From assembly GCA_050011565.1 (NCBI GenBank), contig JBEKIW010000002.1, positions 320,001 to 384,000 of the forward strand: a stretch of 64,000 bases of DNA, in the 5' to 3' direction. Shown here piece by piece: positions 3 to 33,389 of this stretch (position 1 is its first letter; each line of letters opens with the position of its first letter). The notes under the pieces were generated by a model. It did no database searches. It was not told the origin of the DNA and worked only from the letters and a program-made list of their open reading frames with translations. The DNA is from Dehalococcoidia bacterium. GTDB taxonomy: Bacteria; Chloroflexota; Dehalococcoidia; GIF9; UBA5629. Position numbers and translations under genes: made by a program.

Positions 3-1496
3 TATGCCACCGTCGACCTTTCAGGTTCCCTTCACTATGCCAGCTGGACGGGCACAGCCTGGATAAAGGAGACCGTGGACCCGGCTGTTGTATGGGACTG
101 CTCACTAGCGCTGGACAGCAATGACCGTCCCCACATCAGCTACTTTGTGGGCATCGGCGAAATTTTCCGCTTAATACCTGACGGAAGCGACAATATAATA
201 GGTGGTATGCTGAAGTATGCCAATTGGACGGGCTCAGCCTGGGACATACAGACAGTGGACCAGGAGACAACCACCTGGGAAGGGCCAGATGGTGCTCCCT
301 CACTCGTAGGCATAGGTGGCGGCAAATGGAGTTCGATAGCGCTGGACAGCAGCGATTACCCCCACATCAGCTACGGCAGTCTTGTCCCTTCTGTCAATCC
401 CACATCCCTCCACTATGCCCGCCTCATTCCGCCCGACACAGCCACAGTAAACACGGCCACGGGCACGGGCACGGCTACCTTTTCCACCAGCGCTGGCGGT
501 ATTGCCAAGCTGACTGCCACAGCCCCGGCCGAAATCACCTGTGTCGCGTTGGGTGTCGAGTTTCCGCATGGTTTTTTCTCCTTCAACATCCTTGGCCTCG
601 ACCCGGGTGAAACAGTAACTGTGACCATTACCTTACCTTCACCAATGCCTGCAGGCACACAATACTGGAAATGCCAGAATGGAACGTTTATAGACTGCAC
701 CTCCCTTCTGGGTGATAATGACGGCGATAATGTATTGACGCTTACGCTTACAGATGGAGGTTTGGGAGACGCTGACGGTATTGCTAACGGTACAATCATT
801 GACCCCGGCGGGCCGGCAATACCAGCAACCGCGGTTCACCCGAACTCCGGCGTGCAGGGACAAACGCTCAATACTACCATAACAGGCATCAACTTCACCG
901 GGGCTACAGTAGTAAGCTTCGGCGCCGGCATAACTGTTAATAGCTTCAAGGTTGACTCCGCCACACAGATAACGGCAAGTATCACAATCGCCCGTAATGC
1001 TGCCATAGGAGCCAGGAATGTCTCGGTGACCACTCCTTTCGGCACCGGAACACTAACTGGTGGTTTCACAGTGAATTCATCAGCACCACAAGCGAAACCA
1101 CGAGTGTCGCCACGTAACCCAGCCAGTATGTCAGTACAATATCTGGACATCAATCCGAAACAGGTATATACCAACCAGCCAGTGACCATCTCGACCAATG
1201 TGGTTAACACCGGTGACGAGGCCGGCAGTCTTTATGTCGTCCTCAAGATAAACGGAAATGTGGAGCAAACCAGGATGGTCAGCGTTGGTGCCCATGGCGC
1301 GCAGCCGGTGAAGTTCACCGTAGTCAAGGCTCAGCCGGGGACCTACACGGTGGACATCGGCGGGCAGCAAGGTAGCTTCACTGTACTTGGCGCCGGCGCC
1401 GCCACTGGCTCGAAAACTGATGGCATGATAGCTTTAGCGATTATAGGTATTTTAATCATCGGTACTCTGGTGGTGTTGCTCCTCCGCCTCGTCTAA
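3..1496 (+). CDS. Membrane-anchored surface protein (5'-truncated): beta-propeller-like repeats, choice-of-anchor U-like domain, IPT/TIG-like and CARDB-like Ig domains, C-terminal TM anchor
   Basis: Frame is open from position 3 (YATVDLSGSLHYASWTG...). Repeated S(L/I)ALDS.D.PHISY motifs; DGGLGDADG..NGTIIDPGGP; VVNTGDEAGS; hydrophobic C-terminus. Confidence 0.75.
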   Translation, partial: YATVDLSGSLHYASWTGTAWIKETVDPAVVWDCSLALDSNDRPHISYFVGIGEIFRLIPDGSDNIIGGMLKYANWTGSAWDIQTVDQETTTWEGPDGAPSLVGIGGGKWSSIALDSSDYPHISYGSLVPSVNPTSLHYARLIPPDTATVNTATGTGTATFSTSAGGIAKLTATAPAEITCVALGVEFPHGFFSFNILGLDPGETVTVTITLPSPMPAGTQYWKCQNGTFIDCTSLLGDNDGDNVLTLTLTDGGLGDADGIANGTIIDPGGPAIPATAVHPNSGVQGQTLNTTITGINFTGATVVSFGAGITVNSFKVDSATQITASITIARNAAIGARNVSVTTPFGTGTLTGGFTVNSSAPQAKPRVSPRNPASMSVQYLDINPKQVYTNQPVTISTNVVNTGDEAGSLYVVLKINGNVEQTRMVSVGAHGAQPVKFTVVKAQPGTYTVDIGGQQGSFTVLGAGAATGSKTDGMIALAIIGILIIGTLVVLLLRLV

Positions 1497-1517
1497 TAAG
1501 CAAGCCTTAGAAATATA

Positions 1518-1552
1518 AACAGGGGGGCGATTTTAGGAATCGCCCCCCTGTT
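1518..1552. terminator. Intrinsic terminator between convergent genes
   Basis: aacaggggggcgatt-ttagg-aatcgcccccctgtt: perfect 15-bp stem. Confidence 0.85.
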
Positions 1553-1597
1553 ATTTCATTCCGTTAGAATTCCACTACTACTGTCATTGACAAATTA

Positions 1598-1690
1598 TTC
1601 TCTCTCCCCTGATGGATGACGGGTGGGCAGGCATCCAGCGAGGATTTACTCCCGCTGAGATACGGGGAAGGGAGATAGTTAGAGTGAGGT
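1598..1690 (-). repeat. REP-like palindrome (cctcac..tctccc / gggagag family) with a second hairpin nested in its loop
   Basis: Minus strand reads acctcactctaactatctccc ...insert... catcaggggagagagaa, resembling the REP at 27824-27853/31242-31262. The insert contains the hairpin cagcgggagtaaatcctcgctg. Confidence 0.55.
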
Positions 1691-1693
1691 AGA

Positions 1694-2725
1694 TTAAAGG
1701 GAATACTTATTTCTAACCCTGGCTGAAAGCTCGGCGAGCAGTTCCAGAGCGCGTACGGAAGCTTCAACGGACAGAGATGCCAGCGTGCAGGACGGAGTCA
1801 GCAAGCTTTGAGCTGCGAGCTGCCTGAAAGACAGGCCGTCACGGGTGAACGGCGCCATGGCTTCGCCCAGCCGGTCATTAAGGCTGCCCAGAGATTCTCG
1901 AGCTACAGCCTCCTCTTCGTTGGGTATGATGCCCCAAGCGATGCTGCCGCCTTTCTCCAGGAAAGCTTTCACCTCAGCCGGATAGCAGCCAAGCGAGTCG
2001 GCGTAGTTATAAGCATCGAAGCTCAGTATGTCGGTCGAGCTTTTTAAAAGTAGTGACCAGTCGGTGCTGCCGCAGCAGTGCACTCCCTTAAGCCCTGTAA
2101 TGCCGCTCAAGACTACTTCGAGTAAAGTTGTCACCTGCTCATTGGGAACGGCGACGAAGGCCGTGCCCAGTGAGGTCAGGTAGGGCTCGTCGACGAAGAT
2201 GATAGTGTCCGGCGCAATTTGCTTTAAGAACCTCTCCTGCCACATAGCTTTAAGCCGCAGGAACTTGGCCAGCGCCTCGGCCAGAAGGTCGTCATAAAGT
2301 ATGCCTCGCTGCTCCCTGTCGGTGACCATAAGCCCCCAGGTGATGGGCCCCGTTATCTGCCCCTTGACCATCCGGGGATGGCGTTCCTTTAGCGCCAGAA
2401 AGGCATGCAGTCCGGCGGCATAGTCGGCGCTGATGCCGTATTTATCCGGGTCATTCTCCGCATCCGCGTTGTAAAGCTGCTCCAGCCGGCTGTCGAAATC
2501 CGCCGGACGTTCCACATAGGCTTTAGCTCCCTCGAGCACAATGCCCGGGAAGCCTTCGCTGAACTGGGCATACATATTTTCCTGGCTGGAGCGTTTCGGT
2601 AGTTGCGGCCAGGCGGGCAGGTCAGGCAGGTATTTAGCCACCAGTGAGCAAGCCTCCTTGGGGTCGGTCTGAGGCATGCTGCCTATAATTGTGGGCAGAC
2701 AGTTGAATTCGATTTTGGGTGCCAT
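1694..2725 (-). CDS. Core (catalytic-domain-only) methionine synthase, MesB-like, folate-independent
   Basis: MetE C-terminal-like motifs KGQITGPIT and FVDEP; Zn ligands GVHCC, SFDAY (Asp) and TPSC; 343 aa with no N-terminal MetE half. Start reset to ATG 2725, just downstream of mtnP. Confidence 0.8.
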   Translation of the reverse strand: MAPKIEFNCLPTIIGSMPQTDPKEACSLVAKYLPDLPAWPQLPKRSSQENMYAQFSEGFPGIVLEGAKAYVERPADFDSRLEQLYNADAENDPDKYGISADYAAGLHAFLALKERHPRMVKGQITGPITWGLMVTDREQRGILYDDLLAEALAKFLRLKAMWQERFLKQIAPDTIIFVDEPYLTSLGTAFVAVPNEQVTTLLEVVLSGITGLKGVHCCGSTDWSLLLKSSTDILSFDAYNYADSLGCYPAEVKAFLEKGGSIAWGIIPNEEEAVARESLGSLNDRLGEAMAPFTRDGLSFRQLAAQSLLTPSCTLASLSVEASVRALELLAELSARVRNKYSL

Positions 2726-2733
2726 TAATTTCC

Positions 2734-3597
2734 CTACTTTATATACTTGCCGATTATTGGTGCCAGGTCCTTCTTGACCTGCTCCGGTATGAGCTCCCGG
2801 GAGGTGATTATGGCATTTTGGAGTGCGGAAGCACAAATACAATTCCTTTTTTGAGGTAAGCAAGTTACTGCCTGCCTCAGAAGCCTTTTGACGTTTTCAA
2901 CACCTCTCCTCAGATTGTCAATGACCATATCCACAGTCACCACCTCGTAGGTCTCTTTCCAGCAGTCGTAGTCGGTGACCACGGCCATGGTGGCATAGCA
3001 GATTTCCGCCTCACGTGCCAGCTTAGCCTCCGGCAGACCGGTCATGTAGATGACATCGGCTCCCCAGGAGCGGTACAGCTCGGATTCAGCCCTGGTGGAG
3101 AACTGAGGACCTTCCATGACGACGCAGGTACCGCCGTCATGCGCCCTTATTTCGAGCTTACGCGCTGAGTTGTGGAGTATATCGCCGAGAACGGGGCAGA
3201 AGGGGTCGGCAAAGGGTATGTGCCCGACGATGCCCTTGCCGAAGAAGGTATCCTGCCGGAGGAAGGTGCGGTCGATAATCTGGTCTGGTATAACTATGTC
3301 CAGTGGTCTGATTTTCTCCTGGAGGCTGCCGACGGTGGCTACGGAGAATATCCATTCCACGCCGAGAGTCTTCAAGGCGTAGATGTTGGCTCTTGACGGC
3401 AGTTCGGTGGGGCTGATGCGATGTCCTTTACCGTGACGGGGCAAAAAGGCGACGTTCACACCTTCCAGCTTGCCCAGCGTAATAACATCGCTCGGGTCGC
3501 CGAAGGGCGTCTTAATTTTTATATCTTTTGTTTCGGTCAAGCCCTCTATCTGGTACAGGCCGCTGCCGCCGATAATACCGACTTTCGCTTCAGCCAT
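2734..3597 (-). CDS. mtnP: S-methyl-5'-thioadenosine phosphorylase
   Basis: GIIGGSGLY, FLPRHG, EGPQFSTRAES, PEAKLAREAEICY, VTDYDCW. Confidence 0.95.
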   Translation of the reverse strand: MAEAKVGIIGGSGLYQIEGLTETKDIKIKTPFGDPSDVITLGKLEGVNVAFLPRHGKGHRISPTELPSRANIYALKTLGVEWIFSVATVGSLQEKIRPLDIVIPDQIIDRTFLRQDTFFGKGIVGHIPFADPFCPVLGDILHNSARKLEIRAHDGGTCVVMEGPQFSTRAESELYRSWGADVIYMTGLPEAKLAREAEICYATMAVVTDYDCWKETYEVVTVDMVIDNLRRGVENVKRLLRQAVTCLPQKRNCICASALQNAIITSRELIPEQVKKDLAPIIGKYIK

Positions 3598-3636
3598 TAT
3601 TCAATCTCCACACTAAAATTTTCGTCATTTTGGTTT

Positions 3637-4314
3637 TTAACTCTCCTCCATTGTCTTCTTGATCTCCTCCGTATGACCGTAATATATCAGGTGGTCTCCG
3701 GCCTGCACAATCTCCTTGGCTTCAGGGTAAAACATAACCTTATCGCCTCTCTCGATAGCCAGAACCCTGACATCGGCCTTTGCCAGGCTGGTATCGCTGA
3801 TTTTAGAGCCGACCTCCGGTGCCGCCTTGCCAACGGTCAATCGCGCCAGGCTGTGGTCGCCCGCCTGGTAAATTATCTCAGTATTCGATAGCTCCGGCTT
3901 GAAATACGGTGTCCGTTTCAACCAGTTGACTATTACCGTGGCCAGCTTATCCAGTACGCCTAACCAGAACAGCACCAGCAAAACAACCGCCGGTATCGCT
4001 GAAAGGATGTATACAAAAGGTGAGGTCGGTTTCGATGGTTGTGTGCCGATTACGATCAGTATGAACAGCAAAAGCAAGAATAGTATGATGCCGACGCTGC
4101 CCAGAAACATCATCCAGCTGACTATCATCCGGCGTCTGGGGTGGCCGACGATGTTCTCTGCTTCCCGTGTGGTGAAGCCCGTACCGGTAAGCGCTGAAAT
4201 CGCCTGAAAGCGGGCTCTCGACCGCTCCATGCCGGTGGCTTCCAGTGCAATCGAGCCGAACCACAATATAAACAGCCATACCGTTATCACCACTAGCATC
4301 AATTCCGGTTGCAT
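3637..4314 (-). CDS. Membrane protein with K+-channel-like pore motif and TrkA-C (RCK_C) domain
   Basis: ARFQAISALTGTGFTT.EAE motif, several TM helices, C-terminal VLAIERG...P....AGD. Confidence 0.8.
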   Translation of the reverse strand: MQPELMLVVITVWLFILWFGSIALEATGMERSRARFQAISALTGTGFTTREAENIVGHPRRRMIVSWMMFLGSVGIILFLLLLFILIVIGTQPSKPTSPFVYILSAIPAVVLLVLFWLGVLDKLATVIVNWLKRTPYFKPELSNTEIIYQAGDHSLARLTVGKAAPEVGSKISDTSLAKADVRVLAIERGDKVMFYPEAKEIVQAGDHLIYYGHTEEIKKTMEES

Positions 4315-4441
4315 GTCATCCCTCCGTATTTAGATGTTCGTATCCTGCCACACCACGATGGAAACGCCAAGATTATACTTGGAAATCGAGGTGGTGACAA
4401 TGATTGCCTGCCGGGATTGATTTTCTACGATATGGGCGCCT

Positions 4442-4507
4442 GGATTCCTAATCCATTGTCCAGCTAATACCTAAAGTATTCTATTTAGCTTTGGATGGGT
4501 GTATAAT
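4442..4507 (+). repeat. 66-bp leader repeat, copy 1 (ends in -10 TATAAT)
   Basis: 55/66 ungapped identity to 7479-7544, counted by hand. Confidence 0.9.
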
Positions 4508-4526
4508 CGAAGCTACAGGTGGGGAA

Positions 4527-5489
4527 GTGTCTTTAACAGGCTTTGTGGAGTGGGTGAAGCCAACTCTAAACCAGTTATTCGATATGCCTACCTTTGGGAT
4601 GAAAGGTGAGATGAAGGCTGCACCCCTATCTATGCATTATGGGTTTATAGGAACATCTTTCGATTACGTTCTCAGATTACAGGTAGCTAAAATAAATAAG
4701 AATTTGGTTACTGATTTCCCCATAGTTGGTCGAATAGCTGCAAAGGGTAACAAGTTTCGTGAACAAATAATCACTGATTTTGAGTTAGCTAAAACAAGAT
4801 ATCTTAATGATGAATTAGAACTAAGCGACCTTTTGCCTAACTGTATTTACTTGGCTATTTTGGACACGTTAGCCAGAACTGGAACAGACTCCCAACCATC
4901 GACAGACGAAGATATTAAGTCATTAATGCCAAAGAAGTTACGTAATGACAGGGATGCCTTTAAGAAATATAAGGAATTGCATGAGGAATTTCTTCCACCC
5001 CCTCTTACTTGGACACCTGACCCTAAAGATATAGCTGATTTAGCAAGCCTAACTGATATAGTTGACACTAAAATGTGGCAAGCCAAAACACGGTGTATTC
5101 TAAACCCCACATTTGGCCAAAGTAGTTCTTATATCGGTGGGGCTGATGCCGATTTGATAATTGATAACAAACTGATAGATATTAAGACAACAAAATACTT
5201 GAAATTTACTCGTCCTTATTTTAGGCAGCTAATAGGATACCACCTTCTAAACTGTAGAGAACAGGAAATGTATAAGGGATTAGAACATCTAGGCATATAC
5301 TATGCTCGACATGGCCTACTATTTACATTCCCAATACCTAATATGCAGAGGAACATTAAATTTGGGGATGAAGTTATAGACGAGGAAGTGATTGAATCCT
5401 GGATACAGATATATCACGAAGAGATTAACAAAGTCCCTCCTTGGCGTATAATCCCACAAGTACTTGATTTTCTGAAACCGAATAAATAA
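4527..5489 (+). CDS. Putative PD-(D/E)XK nuclease-family protein
   Basis: NPTFG...ADADLIIDNKLIDIKTTK...RQLIGY resembles the D..(D/E)xK..Q...Y core; AT-rich codon usage; GTG start after the -10 box. Confidence 0.65.
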   Translation: MSLTGFVEWVKPTLNQLFDMPTFGMKGEMKAAPLSMHYGFIGTSFDYVLRLQVAKINKNLVTDFPIVGRIAAKGNKFREQIITDFELAKTRYLNDELELSDLLPNCIYLAILDTLARTGTDSQPSTDEDIKSLMPKKLRNDRDAFKKYKELHEEFLPPPLTWTPDPKDIADLASLTDIVDTKMWQAKTRCILNPTFGQSSSYIGGADADLIIDNKLIDIKTTKYLKFTRPYFRQLIGYHLLNCREQEMYKGLEHLGIYYARHGLLFTFPIPNMQRNIKFGDEVIDEEVIESWIQIYHEEINKVPPWRIIPQVLDFLKPNK

Positions 5490-27232: not shown

Positions 27233-27814
27233 TCAGTTAAACTTGTTCATGGCGGCGGTTATGCCGTCGGTCAGGATGGACTGGATGGCTTTGGCTACCT
27301 GGGCGATGGCGGCCTTGATTATATCGTCTTCTCGAGGGGTGAAGTCGCTGAGCACGTAGTTGACAATAGCGTCCTCATCGGTGATTGCCGTGCCGTCTTC
27401 TTCGGTCGGGCGGCCGATGCCTACCTTGATGCGGCAGAAATCTTTGCTTCCCAGAGCCGAGATTATCGAGTTTATCCCTTTGTGTCCCCCAGCGCTACCA
27501 CCGGGGCGGAGGCGCAGCCTGCCCAAGGGCAAATCGAGGTCATCACATATAACAATCAGGTCGTTTACCTGGATTTTGTATTTGCGCATCAGTCGCCCAA
27601 CCGCCTCACCGCTTAGATTGACGAAGGTCTTGGGTTTAGCCAGCAGTACTTCCACGCCGGCTATTTTACCGCTGCCGACTTGAGACTGGCACTGGTGCCC
27701 TTTCATGGATATGGAATGGAGCCTGGCCAGATGGTTTATGCAGCGGAAGCCGATATTGTGGCGGTTACCGGCATAAATGCTGCCCGGATTGCCCAGACCT
27801 ACAATTAGTTTCAA
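27233..27814 (-). CDS. pth: Peptidyl-tRNA hydrolase
   Basis: LIVGLGNPG, RHNIGF, KPKTFVNLSG, GGH.G. Confidence 0.95.
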   Translation of the reverse strand: MKLIVGLGNPGSIYAGNRHNIGFRCINHLARLHSISMKGHQCQSQVGSGKIAGVEVLLAKPKTFVNLSGEAVGRLMRKYKIQVNDLIVICDDLDLPLGRLRLRPGGSAGGHKGINSIISALGSKDFCRIKVGIGRPTEEDGTAITDEDAIVNYVLSDFTPREDDIIKAAIAQVAKAIQSILTDGITAAMNKFN

Positions 27815-27823
27815 TTTTGTGCA

Positions 27824-27853
27824 CCCCTCACCCTGCCCTCTCCCCTTGTCAAG
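27824..27853 (+). repeat. Left half of REP-like palindrome including target duplication CTTGTCAAG (27845-27853)
   Basis: acccctcaccctgccctctccc-cttgtcaag; the right half cttgtcaag-gggagaggg is at 31242-31259. Confidence 0.85.
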
Positions 27854-28207
27854 TAGCCCCGTGCATAATGTTATGTCAATAATACCTGAAACGAGGAGAG
27901 AAGATGATTAATAATACCAGATGTTGCCGACTTTGGGCTAGGTTCTCAATACAATAGCTTAGGGATGTGCGAAACTACATTCGAAACTCACTTATGATCC
28001 ATATTAGTATTACGTACCTCAATACTTTCGATAGTATATTTGAGCGTTCTATAAAGCATATCTAAATCCTCTATAAATTCATTCACCTATTGTAAGATAC
28101 CTTTATTTGACATTATGTAAAGAGTACTCTTGACTTATGCCAAATCTTAATTTACTATAGACTCTAAATCAAAGCCACAAAAAGCAATTAAGCTGAAGAG
28201 ATCATAC

Positions 28208-29872
28208 ATGGTAGAACAGTTCTCGGTTTTCCAAATGCGCAGCACTACAGACTGGGAAAGTCTAGTAAGGTTCTTATTGAAGAACGGGACACCCGCCGTC
28301 TCAACTAACCTAAGACCTGCTATTGAGATCTTTAATCTTTTACGTCTTCGTGGGTGTCTCTCAGTTATAATTGAAGATCCTTATTTGGATGAAGATCACC
28401 GACGGTGTCATGCTCGGCTGCATAATCTTGCCCAGTCAGCCATGTCGCGATATTGTAGGCGACTGCATTTTTTCTCCAAAGAAGTGCAACTATCTGACCT
28501 AAGAAATCTACCTGAGACTTGTCACAAACAATACATGGGGATGTGTGTATGGAGACCCATCAATGCTTTCCCCGTTGGACGTACAATCTTATCTGCCAAA
28601 AACGTAATTGCACCAGTAGGCAAAAATTGGGAACCATACCTAACGTGTAGTACGAAATATGAAATAAATATGGCAGGCAACATATTGGCAGTAAATGGAT
28701 CGCCGTTTATCCAACAGGATCACATGGTTGCAGCTTGTGCTACTGCAGCTATATGGATGGCAAACTGGTATATGAGTACTCAGTATGATGAGTTCACTAC
28801 ATACTATAGCCCACAAATAACCGAAGCAGCGACACGCTATGATCTCTCTTTTGGGCGGGCTATTCCTTCGGAAGGGTTACATAATGGACAGATACTAGAA
28901 GCTTTCAGGGCACTTGGTTATGATCCTATTGCATATGATTTACTCAAAACTTCCGCTACTGTTTCTAGACGTCTACTCTATAGATTAGTGGAAAGCGGAA
29001 TCCCCACGGTAGCTGGGCTTGTTGAACCGGAGGGTGGGCATGCTATCACCGTTTTCGGACATGCATTAGACATGGATATTGACCCGCCACTCCATACGTT
29101 TCCCGAAAGATCACGTTCAATTAGGGCTGTAAAATATATTGACTCATCTGACTATAGCCAAGCCTTCCTAGTTAACGATGATGCAATGGGGCCTTATCGT
29201 TGGATGGAATTAAAAGATACAAACGAGATAACGGAAGAGAACTTAAGAGGGATTTACCCAACTAGTCGTAGCCTCAATGCAGCAAAACGTTTCCTCGATG
29301 AGCTTGCTAGTAGAGACATCACTACTACTGCGATATTCAGTAACAGCTCCGGTCAACCGGAATTCATTGCGGGGATTGATTTTCTTGCTGCACCATTGCC
29401 GACTGCTATTACATTATCACCAAAGGACGCCCAAGATAAAGCGTTAGCAGTATTTCACACTCTAATACCTAGTGATTCGGGAACCCTTCCGACGCTTGCT
29501 GTACGCACCTATCTTACAGAATCCAATACATTCAAAGAACACATCGGCAAGGTAGCCAACCCGAACTCAGATTTTGCATGGTGGTTACGTAGCTTGTATT
29601 ACCCAAAATGGATCTGGGTCACGGAATTCAGCACTTATCAAAATAATAGAACCCCAATAGGCCGACAGGTGGTTGCATCTATCGTGATAGATTCCTCTGC
29701 ACCACGTGACACCTTGCATTTTGTTTTAGTGCATATTGGTGGCTGGGTTATTCATATAAGCAAAGATCAACAGAATGTGATACAAGTTGTTAAAGATATG
29801 GCAATGAATAGGCTTCCACTTTTAATTGACAATAACTTCGTCCCTTACGTTCAACTAGAGAGAAAAAATTAG
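28208..29872 (+). CDS. Large papain-like (C39-like) cysteine peptidase, uncharacterised family
   Basis: PFIQQDHMVAACATAAIW (Gln/Cys), GGHAITVFGH (His), FLVNDD (Asn/Asp) in papain order. Confidence 0.7.
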   Translation: MVEQFSVFQMRSTTDWESLVRFLLKNGTPAVSTNLRPAIEIFNLLRLRGCLSVIIEDPYLDEDHRRCHARLHNLAQSAMSRYCRRLHFFSKEVQLSDLRNLPETCHKQYMGMCVWRPINAFPVGRTILSAKNVIAPVGKNWEPYLTCSTKYEINMAGNILAVNGSPFIQQDHMVAACATAAIWMANWYMSTQYDEFTTYYSPQITEAATRYDLSFGRAIPSEGLHNGQILEAFRALGYDPIAYDLLKTSATVSRRLLYRLVESGIPTVAGLVEPEGGHAITVFGHALDMDIDPPLHTFPERSRSIRAVKYIDSSDYSQAFLVNDDAMGPYRWMELKDTNEITEENLRGIYPTSRSLNAAKRFLDELASRDITTTAIFSNSSGQPEFIAGIDFLAAPLPTAITLSPKDAQDKALAVFHTLIPSDSGTLPTLAVRTYLTESNTFKEHIGKVANPNSDFAWWLRSLYYPKWIWVTEFSTYQNNRTPIGRQVVASIVIDSSAPRDTLHFVLVHIGGWVIHISKDQQNVIQVVKDMAMNRLPLLIDNNFVPYVQLERKN

Positions 29873-29896
29873 CAGGAGACAATTGTCTCCTGCTAA
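29869..29896. terminator. Perfect 28-bp palindrome, bidirectional terminator
   Basis: ttagcaggagacaattgtctcctgctaa between convergent ORFs. Confidence 0.85.
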
Positions 29897-29924
29897 AAGG
29901 TTTCTGCTAATCGCCGTTTGTTTA

Positions 29925-30095
29925 TTACTTTGTGTTAGGACGTCCTAGTGTCTTTGCAGAAACGCCTGTACGTTCTGCTTCTTTGCCCTTATTTGCCACA
30001 CTTAGAGCTTTTAATGCCTTCGTTGCTCTCCTGTCAATTCCCCGCACAATAGCTTTTGGGTCTGGACGATTTAAGACCATTGTAGTTAAAGCCAC
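29925..30095 (-). CDS. Small basic peptide (56 aa; not in ORF track)
   Basis: GAGGTGA RBS + GTG; MALTTMVLNRPDPKAIVRGIDRRATKALKALSVANKGKEAERTGVSAKTLGRPNTK; tandem TAA TAA stops; promoter upstream. Confidence 0.7.
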   Translation of the reverse strand: MALTTMVLNRPDPKAIVRGIDRRATKALKALSVANKGKEAERTGVSAKTLGRPNTK

Positions 30096-30152
30096 AACTC
30101 ACCTCTTTCTGATTTGTTCCTTATTGCCGCTGCCGACACAATTTGCTTTCGT

Positions 30153-30180
30153 ATTATACACCCATTTGTCAAGAGGTCAA
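30153..30180 (-). promoter_or_regulatory. Sigma70-type promoter for the 56-aa peptide
   Basis: Minus strand TTGACC-N16-TATAAT. Confidence 0.6.
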
Positions 30181-30435
30181 GCCCTTCAAATTTGCCAAAA
30201 TCCAAATCTTGTACTTTAGTACTATATTCATGAAATAGGCCAAGGTATTTTACTATTATACACAATAAAATTACAAAAATAATATTTTTTCAAGACTATC
30301 TAATCATACATTGAAGTTGACAAACAACTGATAAGGTGGTAATCTATTATTCTAACCATCTAATATTATATATTAACAAAAAATCATACTTTTGTCAATA
30401 TACACTGGTATAAACGTAAACTGATAAACGTCAAG

Positions 30436-30642
30436 ATGGACAGACTATCTGCCGAACAATCCCAATCAGACAAATTTTCCAAAGGGTCAAGGCGTCCACA
30501 GACTTTTAAATTGTCAATGGGTTTAATAAAACGACTAGGACATTACGTAGTAGACCGTAGCAGCAAAGATAGTCGCCGCATAGAGAAGTCTGAAATAGCA
30601 GAACAGGCGATAGGCGAGTTCCTAAATAAAGAAGGTTATTAG
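30436..30642 (+). CDS. Putative ribbon-helix-helix DNA-binding protein
   Basis: Alternating strand PQTFKL, a helix, then KSEIAEQAIGEFL, typical of RHH helix 2. Confidence 0.65.
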   Translation: MDRLSAEQSQSDKFSKGSRRPQTFKLSMGLIKRLGHYVVDRSSKDSRRIEKSEIAEQAIGEFLNKEGY

Positions 30643-30674
30643 GGTTTATCTCGTTCAAATATCGTACTTAGCCA

Positions 30675-31189
30675 TTAACCAACCTGCCTAACACATTCTC
30701 TTATATCCTCTACTCGGCCATCTTTTGCTTTGGCTAGGGCTAGCGCTTGCATAACCAGTACCGACAAAGTTGTATGAGCATTCAGCCGGTCAAAACCCCG
30801 GAAACAGTGCTCCTCTAATCTACGTGTCTGTTTCAGCCTGGAAAAGACACGTTCCGAAGAAGAGCGCTTGCGGTAAAGTGTAGTCCATTCATCTGTTCCA
30901 CGTTTAACTGTATGGCCAAATCGGCGATAATCTTGCCCCTGATTAAGCCAGATCATCTTAAGCCCACATTTCTCAGGCAAAGGGCAAGTGGCTCTCCCGG
31001 CCTTTTCAGGACATTGGTATTGATACAACCCTTTTTTATTATCCCTGCTTCTAAATATGAGCGGTAATCCCGCTGGGCAGCATGGTTTTGATGAGGACCC
31101 TGTCAGCTCTGGCATTGTCCCTTTTGATCTTGCTGATAATGGAATGACCGGGGATGCCCCAAACTCGTCAACATCTGGTATTATTAATC
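30675..31189 (-). pseudogene. Truncated DDE transposase (IS4/IS5/IS1182-like), C-terminal part only
   Basis: Cys-rich insertion CCPAG..YQCP..C....C and Y.KRSS.ERVFSRLK (catalytic Glu); the frame is closed just inside the inverted repeat and the N-terminal Asp region is missing. Confidence 0.85.
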
Positions 31190-31270
31190 ATCTTCTCTCC
31201 TCGTTTCAGGTATTATTGACATAACATTATGCACGGGGCTACTTGTCAAGGGGAGAGGGAAAGAAGTATG

Positions 31271-31295
31271 TTGAAAGGGGCTACGCCCCTTTCAA
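31271..31295. terminator. Hairpin (REP-like/terminator) downstream of ligA
   Basis: ttgaaaggggc-tac-gcccctttcaa. Confidence 0.7.
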
Positions 31296-31331
31296 TCCCC
31301 ATTAAGTCGCGGAGGTAGCCGATGTCCCCTG

Positions 31332-33389
<2,058 letters not shown>

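Follow-up and report, generated by a model that had tools for sequence, protein, structure and literature searches.

A papain-like peptidase family paired with a small gene, and its possible role as a conflict module in an insertion-sequence-derived cassette of a Dehalococcoidia bacterium

What do the passenger genes of a small element inserted between ligA and pth in a Dehalococcoidia bacterium encode, and do they form a single system? We addressed this question in a 64,000-nt stretch of DNA (assembly GCA_050011565.1, contig JBEKIW010000002.1, positions 320,001 to 384,000 of the forward strand), referred to here as the window; coordinates given without a locus name are positions in it. A first-pass annotation, made from the sequence alone, had described the element as a transposon whose whole cargo consists of three genes forming a protease-based toxin-antitoxin or anti-phage module. 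All three open reading frames (ORFs) are present in the ORF listing of the window: a 554-aa papain-like (C39_2-related) cysteine peptidase (28208–29872, plus strand), a 56-aa basic peptide read convergently with it (29925–30095, minus strand, GTG start), and a 68-aa putative ribbon-helix-helix (RHH)-like regulator (30436–30642, plus strand). The cargo is larger than was then stated, as a 146-aa ORF (30675–31115, minus strand), the C-terminal fragment of an IS1182-type insertion-sequence (IS) transposase, is present too. We tentatively read this cargo as a peptide-gated protease conflict module of the abortive-infection or toxin-antitoxin type, a reading that we put forward as the likeliest of those weighed here and a realistic possibility, though somewhat short of probable.

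The 554-aa protein gave no matches in Pfam, NCBIfam, PADLOC or PDB sequences; PDB sequence searches with the single protein and with a family profile returned chance-level rows only, and the Peptidase_C39_2 model (PF13529) gave no match at an expectation value (E) of ≤1 or ≤10, so that the Pfam gathering score was not reached. Its relatives are numerous: a word-indexed search found 47, and an exhaustive search found 3,373 cluster representatives (50% identity level) at E ≤ 1e-3, 2,158 at ≤ 1e-10 and 184 at ≤ 1e-30, most of them 500–560 aa long. In an alignment of 39 members, Q170, C177, W183, H278, G284, D325 and G328 were invariant; the N-terminal region adds R85, H87, F89, Y109, G111 and P117 to this set, and the C-terminal region adds R433. 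The papain order of Gln, Cys, His and Asp proposed in the first-pass annotation is thus borne out. A larger alignment of full-length members (the window protein plus 170 of 193 fetched sequences, the 23 dropped being <450 or >700 aa) retained C177 and H278 in 171 of 171 sequences, D325 in 170 and Q170 in 168.

Profile comparison aligned these catalytic residues with those of PF13529. Family residues 130–345 matched nine bona fide C39_2 domains, taken from genomes of the same class, with an hhalign probability of 89.5 (E 2e-6, 108 columns), in a register that places Q170, C177 and H278 on the C39_2 Gln, Cys and His and stops before the Asp. Weak PF13529 matches were also seen for 9 of the 39 members (best 3.7e-5), and one member matches C70. 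The ESM Atlas model of the exact 554-aa protein has a predicted template-modelling (TM) score of 0.87, and its residues 110–330 align (TM 0.88) to a small cluster of which 17% is annotated as C39_2, which we take as a lead only. By these comparisons, the family is a distant relative of Peptidase_C39_2, and the window protein is probably an active clan-CA cysteine peptidase. It resembles Peptidase_C39_2 and clan CA in the order of Gln, Cys, His and Asp and in the motifs QQDxxxxxCAxAAxW, GHA(V/I) and (N/H)DD, whereas it differs in having two extra conserved regions of ~130 and ~210 residues (residues ~1–130 and ~345–554), with invariant R85, H87, G111, R433, W470 and E473. A further difference lies in the pairing of the family with a small gene and in its predicted cytoplasmic location: the N-terminus of the window protein, judged by eye from its translation, is not hydrophobic, in agreement with the earlier observation that it has no signal peptide, and the peptidase is probably cytoplasmic. 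A 61%-identical copy that stops after 214 aa and is overlapped by a 400-aa ORF on the opposite strand was seen in one locus (L010:6001–7776).

We then collected loci of this family from metagenomes, species genomes and related genomes, called their ORFs mechanically and dereplicated them at 85% peptidase identity, which left 67 loci. By a permissive, mechanical test, 59 of 66 loci have a small same-strand ORF ending ≤130 nt upstream of the peptidase; for controls drawn from the same loci (genes of ≥300 aa), the count is 118 of 205. A profile built from 23 alphaproteobacterial partners matched 45 ORFs at E ≤ 0.022, 43 of them at E ≤ 1.1e-6, and in the loci that were cross-checked against gene maps, the matches lay directly upstream of a peptidase gene and none away from it. 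Other clades have conserved partners of their own (…DYAIQINA.., …FAFR, …VVLL), and by a manual collation ~40 of 66 partners are conserved in another dereplicated locus. What the partners have in common is a helix and, after it, a short C-terminal tail in which hydrophobic residues alternate and the last residue is often Gly; no double-glycine leader was found in their sequences. The window and the one readable locus of the same clade (L009, Dehalococcoidia by source naming, peptidase 49–50% identical) have no upstream partner ORF.

The neighbours of these genes are in large part those of defence and mobile DNA, in line with what the first-pass annotation expected of homologues. Four loci contain AbiEi/AbiEii genes, integrases and XRE helix-turn-helix (HTH) regulators are further neighbours, and four of ten large neighbours searched against PADLOC gave a match (one type I restriction enzyme, one type IIG enzyme and two mad3/AbiL/AriA-like ATPases). 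Four matches to the family were found on plasmids, two of which are conjugative. The spread is sporadic, with a match in 3 of 60 related genomes and in 9 of 400 genomes of the class; no relatives were found in 50,697 phage records or in viral contigs, which is neutral with respect to a role in conflict. On the large plasmids pS19501 of Shewanella baltica (L135) and p4782_002 of Pseudomonas aeruginosa (L136), we observed relatives of 719–726 aa, each preceded by a 52–55-aa ORF, and one of the two adjoins a TrlF-family AAA-like ATPase.

A link missed by the first-pass annotation recurs in the family, namely to operons of ubiquitin-like (Bub-like) conjugation. Of the 67 loci, 17 have a gene resembling ubiquitin-activating enzyme (E1, ThiF) next to the peptidase (13 by profile, 4 by weaker Pfam matches), and at least nine have a multiubiquitin-domain gene there. 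In a FastTree tree, which carries long-branch warnings, at least six clades contain E1-linked loci, and the window clade groups with other Chloroflexota that lack E1. Annotated examples include Mesorhizobium plasmid pMspAR07b, where the small gene and the peptidase gene are convergent with ThiF, 130-aa and multiubiquitin genes without DUF6527, and P. aeruginosa p4782_002, where ImmA/IrrE, HTH, multiubiquitin, ThiF and DUF6527 genes are followed by a small gene and the 726-aa relative. The latter gene set is that of a type II Bub operon as described in the available text of a Corbett-laboratory preprint (PMC11601596), where the targets and biological role of the pathway are given as unknown. 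Operons of E1, a small E2-like or other protein and multiubiquitin, convergent to and overlapping the peptidase gene, were observed in pMspAR07b (L134, 4740–8747) and in four further loci (L046, L063, L068, L071). DUF6527 was not detectable in these five operons, which may represent a Bub-like type with a papain-like enzyme in place of the serine protease.

Comparison with Bub (6E/DUF6527) operons thus gives both likenesses and differences. Relatives of the window peptidase directly adjoin E1 (ThiF), multiubiquitin and sometimes DUF6527 genes, and the family shares with Bub operons HTH or ImmA/IrrE-type regulators and mobile-element contexts. Bub itself, in the available text of PMC11601596, comprises a ubiquitin-like protein, E1, E2 and a DUF6527 serine protease, whereas the window has none of these and none were found in its genome. 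The cassette accordingly does not contain multiubiquitin, E1, E2 and DUF6527 genes together, and the genome gave no match to Multi_ubiq (PF14452) or DUF6527 (PF20137), the blank for PF14452 being weak since its control matched no control genome. The available text of two Bub preprints (PMC11601596 and 10.1101/2024.11.21.623966) makes no mention of a papain-like peptidase; their supplements, e.g. Table S1 with 544 operons, may bear on the E1 link. A 2006 survey of prokaryotic ubiquitin-like systems (PMC1779556) ties E1/E2 operons to JAB peptidases, and the only papain-like link in its available text is to NlpC/P60 domains in phage tail clusters.

The small gene of the window itself is of a different kind. 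The first-pass annotation gave the 56-aa peptide its own promoter and ribosome-binding site, and both stand: a sigma-70-like promoter on the minus strand (30153–30180, TTGACC-16-TATAAT) matches 11 of 12 consensus positions, the best such match of the whole 3.5-kb region, and a Shine-Dalgarno sequence, GAGGTGA, precedes the GTG start. Downstream lies a perfect 28-bp palindrome (29869–29896), which overlaps the peptidase stop codon and scores as the intrinsic terminator of the peptide gene. The palindrome had been described as a terminator shared by both genes; it is perfect and placed as stated, but the score was obtained for the minus strand only, where TTTTTT comes next. L009 has a 54-aa ORF in the same convergent position (L009:7707–7871, minus strand), with 52–56% identity to the peptide, an AGGAG of its own and a promoter core, CTTGACAnAATGnnGTATAATAC, common to both loci. 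Over 54 aligned codons the two small genes differ at 21, 22 and 38 sites at codon positions 1, 2 and 3, a count that is not strand-diagnostic alone because the antisense frame shares third positions with the coding frame; of the two loci, however, only the window has an open antisense frame. In view of the promoter, Shine-Dalgarno sequence, terminator and convergent homologue, the 56-aa ORF looks like a real, clade-specific gene coupled to the peptidase.

Searches by tblastn and with a two-sequence profile over all fetched loci recovered the peptide in L009 only. The possibility that it is the usual upstream partner, relocated, was rejected, as the alphaproteobacterial partner profile did not match it at E ≤ 10. 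Local alignment with seven upstream ORFs of sister clades was likewise no better than with shuffled sequences, the best case being equalled by 63 of 500 shuffles. The search for a conserved adjacent short ORF thus has a mixed outcome: a small gene accompanies the peptidase family-wide and the 56-aa gene is kept in L009, but the peptide is not detectably related to the family's upstream partner.

Between the peptide gene and the 68-aa gene lies an AT-rich intergenic control region (30096–30435) with several promoter-like sites in the scan. The GC content is ~0.50 outside the element and 0.35–0.46 inside it, with 0.35 at 30000–30499. The earlier description of an RHH protein transcribed across an AT-rich region stands as to base composition, while the RHH label depends on pattern only: the β-strand/helix/helix pattern was judged by eye, and the 68-aa protein has no Pfam or NCBIfam match at E ≤ 1. 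Its sole homologue is 82% identical and carries no annotation; since longest contig (9318) and source agree, it is probably a neighbour of the 85%-identical peptidase P0001. In L009, a 141-aa XRE-type HTH protein occupies the slot instead. As a part of the module, the RHH-like gene therefore does not generalize, being kept in the closest relative only and replaced by an XRE-type HTH gene elsewhere.

How might these parts work together? In the proposed mechanism, the clan-CA cysteine peptidase (Gln170/Cys177/His278/Asp325) would be the enzyme part of a two-part module, and the separately transcribed 56-aa basic peptide would bind it as inhibitor, pseudo-substrate or substrate and so gate its activity. 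The small RHH-like repressor would act on the AT-rich control region. A peptidase that is no longer gated would harm the cell or the invader, with phage or stress as the trigger; we infer the binding, the harm and the trigger alike. In papain-like deubiquitinases, ubiquitin tails lie in the substrate cleft, and by analogy the tail of the small partner would plausibly occupy the substrate cleft of this peptidase.

Because the tiny partner gene is near-constant and the pair often stands beside ubiquitin-like and anti-phage genes, the peptidase is probably part of an undescribed conflict system. The idea of a protease-based module is thus upheld as far as a conserved probable peptidase, a small neighbouring gene and mobile or defence neighbours are concerned, and qualified in that the window peptide is not detectably related to the family partner and the RHH-like gene is not general. 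Type II toxin-antitoxin and protease-based abortive-infection modules are alike in having a small gene beside a larger enzyme gene, a small DNA-binding regulator (in the window a putative one), and a place in mobile DNA beside toxin-antitoxin and defence genes. They differ in that the small gene of the window is convergent with a promoter of its own, and not upstream in one operon as in type II toxin-antitoxin systems, and no match to a known toxin or antitoxin family was found.

Several observations weigh against a peptide-gated module. The background of the small-ORF count is high, at 58% of controls, and sequence conservation is therefore the stronger evidence for the pairing. The 56-aa peptide is conserved in just one other locus; a collection of 5.8 billion proteins contained its own product only, and a degenerate motif scan of 185,579 species genomes gave zero hits. 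It is basic and convergent, whereas the partner elsewhere is usually acidic, upstream and co-oriented, with no detectable relation to it, and the analogy between the two may be false. None of the three cargo proteins matched a PADLOC-DB v2 model at E ≤ 1. Finally, the E1/multiubiquitin link in 17 of 67 loci suggests another primary role, that of a peptidase of ubiquitin-like conjugates.

This last point is the core of an explanation that we consider unlikely, though a serious contender: the family would be a processing or deconjugating (deubiquitinase-like) peptidase, or a regulated target, of Bub-like systems, the small protein encoded upstream would serve as a mini ubiquitin-like protein or adaptor with its tail in the catalytic cleft, and the window copy would be an orphan without E1 or ubiquitin-like protein, working alone or not at all. 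It draws on the recurrence of E1 genes, in at least six clades, and of multiubiquitin genes, on the arrangements annotated in pMspAR07b and p4782_002, on the many partners that end in …G-x-h-h-h-G, much like a ubiquitin tail, and on a pathway whose targets and role are stated as unknown in the available text of PMC11601596. However, E1 is missing from the neighbourhood in 50 of 67 loci, among them the window and each of the 10 Chloroflexota rows of the tree, the window genome lacks Multi_ubiq and DUF6527 matches (with the weak Multi_ubiq blank noted above), and partner C-termini in E1-linked loci vary (G, R, L, I), which leaves adenylation of the partner unsupported. It is also hard to see a simple deubiquitinase in a protein of 530 aa and three regions whose small companion gene is always retained, even in loci that lack E1. 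A bolder scheme, which we regard as doubtful, would make the peptidase and its small partner a widespread and hitherto undescribed two-gene module that is the missing output arm of Bub-like systems and is also able to work alone. The partner would have its C-terminal tail in the papain-like cleft, in the way of a ubiquitin tail, and the peptidase would be set free once the partner is conjugated, cleaved or displaced on infection. In the window clade, a new, unrelated basic peptide would have taken over the gating, as swappable cargo of a hairpin-targeting IS-derived cassette.

Rather less likely, in our judgement, is that the 56-aa ORF is no partner at all but an independent nucleic-acid-binding protein or regulator or, with still lower probability, a non-coding transcript that counter-regulates the peptidase mRNA, the peptidase acting alone on host or phage proteins. 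The strongly basic product, its own promoter and terminator, transcription towards the peptidase gene, a promoter core conserved with L009 and the lack of relation to the usual partner are all in keeping with this. Yet peptide and peptidase have been co-inherited at similar divergence (52–56% vs 50% identity), the coding strand is open in both loci and the antisense strand is not, with 38 differences at third positions vs 21 and 22 at the others, and a strong terminator separates the peptide gene from the peptidase ORF. Maturation of a ribosomal peptide, in which a C39-like enzyme cuts the leader off the small gene product in the manner of bacteriocins or ribosomally synthesized and post-translationally modified peptides, appears improbable. 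In its favour are the distant kinship of the enzyme with C39-type peptidases, the regular presence of a small ORF next to it and the ability of ThiF-like enzymes to modify peptide C-termini, as in the MccB precedent (available text of PMC11118369), but the element has no ABC transporter, immunity or other tailoring gene, the partners have no double-glycine leader, and the neighbours are regulators, toxin-antitoxin genes, restriction genes and integrases, not biosynthetic clusters. The family shares with C39 bacteriocin ABC exporters a distantly related catalytic core and a nearby small gene, and differs in having no transporter fusion or transporter neighbour, no double-glycine leader and no immunity gene; the ORF listing confirms that the element carries no ABC transporter and so is not a typical exporter of this kind, as was noted at the outset. 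Least probable of all is that the cargo is decaying passenger DNA without present function: the transposase is truncated, neither it nor the inverted repeat has another copy in the genome, and the relative in L010 is truncated too, but the three ORFs and their signals are intact, all catalytic residues are kept, and the read depth and word content in peat metagenomes, described below, also speak against it.

The carrier of these genes was defined from its ends. A 102-nt inverted repeat (97%), the single such pair in the 2.0-Mb genome, bounds the region at 27836–27937 and 31158–31259. Three genomes of the same genus (L130, L131, L132) have an empty ligA-pth site, which reads CCCTCTCCCC-(TTCGAA/TGTCGAA/TTTCGAA)-GGGGAGAGGG, and a fourth has a shorter spacer without the hairpin sequence. 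As the empty sites read stem-loop-stem, the outer 10 nt of each arm are the stems of a host hairpin: the left stem, CCCTCTCCCC (27836–27845), and the right stem, GGGGAGAGGG (31250–31259), lie outside the element. Inside them are the two copies of a 7-bp target-site duplication, TTGTCAA (27846–27852 and 31243–31249), and the terminal inverted repeats proper, the left beginning GTAGCCCCGTGCATAATGTTATGTCAATA… (27853–27937, plus strand, 97% complementary to the right arm) and the right at 31158–31242 (minus strand). The element proper thus spans 27853–31242 (~3.4 kb) and sits inside the hairpin loop. One flank is pth (27233–27814, minus strand; PF01195, 2.8e-67), and the other (31332–33377, minus strand) is a gene that we take, by its translation, to be the DNA ligase gene ligA. 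The spacer hairpin is conserved and GC-rich, with its loop as the insertion point.

The 146-aa ORF is a C-terminal remnant of an IS1182-family DDE transposase, matching positions 366–482 of 488 of NF033551 (E 3.5e-12, 46 bits vs a cut-off of 270) and PF13751 (E 2.7e-5), and no second copy of it was found in the 2.0-Mb genome. The element thus shows the terminal inverted repeats and target-site duplication of an IS1182 element and lacks a full-length DDE transposase of ~488 aa; since the transposase is truncated and has no other genomic copy, the element is unable to move by itself. The description of the genes as transposon cargo is therefore right as to the inverted repeats and the target-site duplication and wrong if self-mobility is implied, as only the C-terminal quarter of the transposase remains. 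The carrier is a non-autonomous IS1182-derived cassette in the loop of the terminator hairpin between ligA and pth. Mobile insertion cassettes, in which IS ends surround passenger genes with no working transposase, offer a comparison: the window element is alike in its IS-type inverted repeats, target-site duplication, passenger genes and non-functional transposase, and differs by its IS1182-type ends, its hairpin-loop target and the other cargo found at the same site in a sister genome.

That sister genome (G012, same genus) holds a 4.5-kb element in the same ligA-pth hairpin with a duplication of its own, TTCAAA (L128, G012:C17:83600–89300, locus 587–5146). Its cargo comprises a radical SAM protein (281 aa), a dCMP-deaminase-like protein (204 aa), a NUDIX fragment and two further proteins (202 and 325 aa), with no transposase, and could be a nucleotide-modifying defence set. 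Its terminal ~28–45 nt are those of the window element; G019 has one such cassette end too, next to a transposase-like remnant and other small genes. That the duplications differ (TTGTCAA in the window, TTCAAA in G012) suggests that insertion directed by the hairpin has happened repeatedly.

The element was also found in three peat metagenome runs. In two of them, possibly its source, the depth of its contig matches that of the flanks (15.6 vs 14.9/14.4 and 45.3 vs 41.1/39.8), and the peat data of a third study contain 0.90 of its sampled words. At 27878, contigs from two runs (X2, X3) have loose ends, running from the terminal repeat into unrelated sequence, which means that further members of this cassette or IS family exist in the peat community. 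No RNA datasets containing the element were listed.

Two further features belong to the description of the locus and its relatives. A promoter-like site 5′ of the peptidase gene (28130–28158, plus strand, TTGACT-17-TACTAT) is a consensus match only, at 9 of 12 positions, and an Rfam scan of 27500–31600 gave zero families above threshold. In five loci from Acidobacteriota, a haloarchaeal bin and others (L013:2900–4042(−), L045:7439–8575(−), L048:7364–8491(−), L053:8120–9187(−) and L032:4679–5833(+)), a conserved protein of ~378 aa, with many invariant Trp, His, Asp and Cys residues, is encoded convergent to and overlapping the peptidase gene. A divergent E1 was considered for this neighbour and rejected (hhalign probability 0.2), and it has no Pfam, NCBIfam or PDB match.

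As the first-pass annotation had stated, the peptidase matches no named system: Pfam, NCBIfam and PADLOC hold no model for it, and no description of the family or of its pairing was found in the models and literature searched. What emerges is a large peptidase family that has kept its Cys-His active site intact, is closely linked to a small partner gene and occurs in defence or mobile contexts. The window contains a minimal form of it, 3.4 kb in size and made up of peptidase, peptide and putative regulator. It also reveals a hotspot, a hairpin loop to which IS-derived cassettes with the same ends bring different cargos in sister genomes. Furthermore, the adjacency of the family to Bub-like E1/multiubiquitin operons offers a concrete candidate for what those systems act on or through, and there is a real chance that it represents a new arm of the bacterial ubiquitin-like systems.

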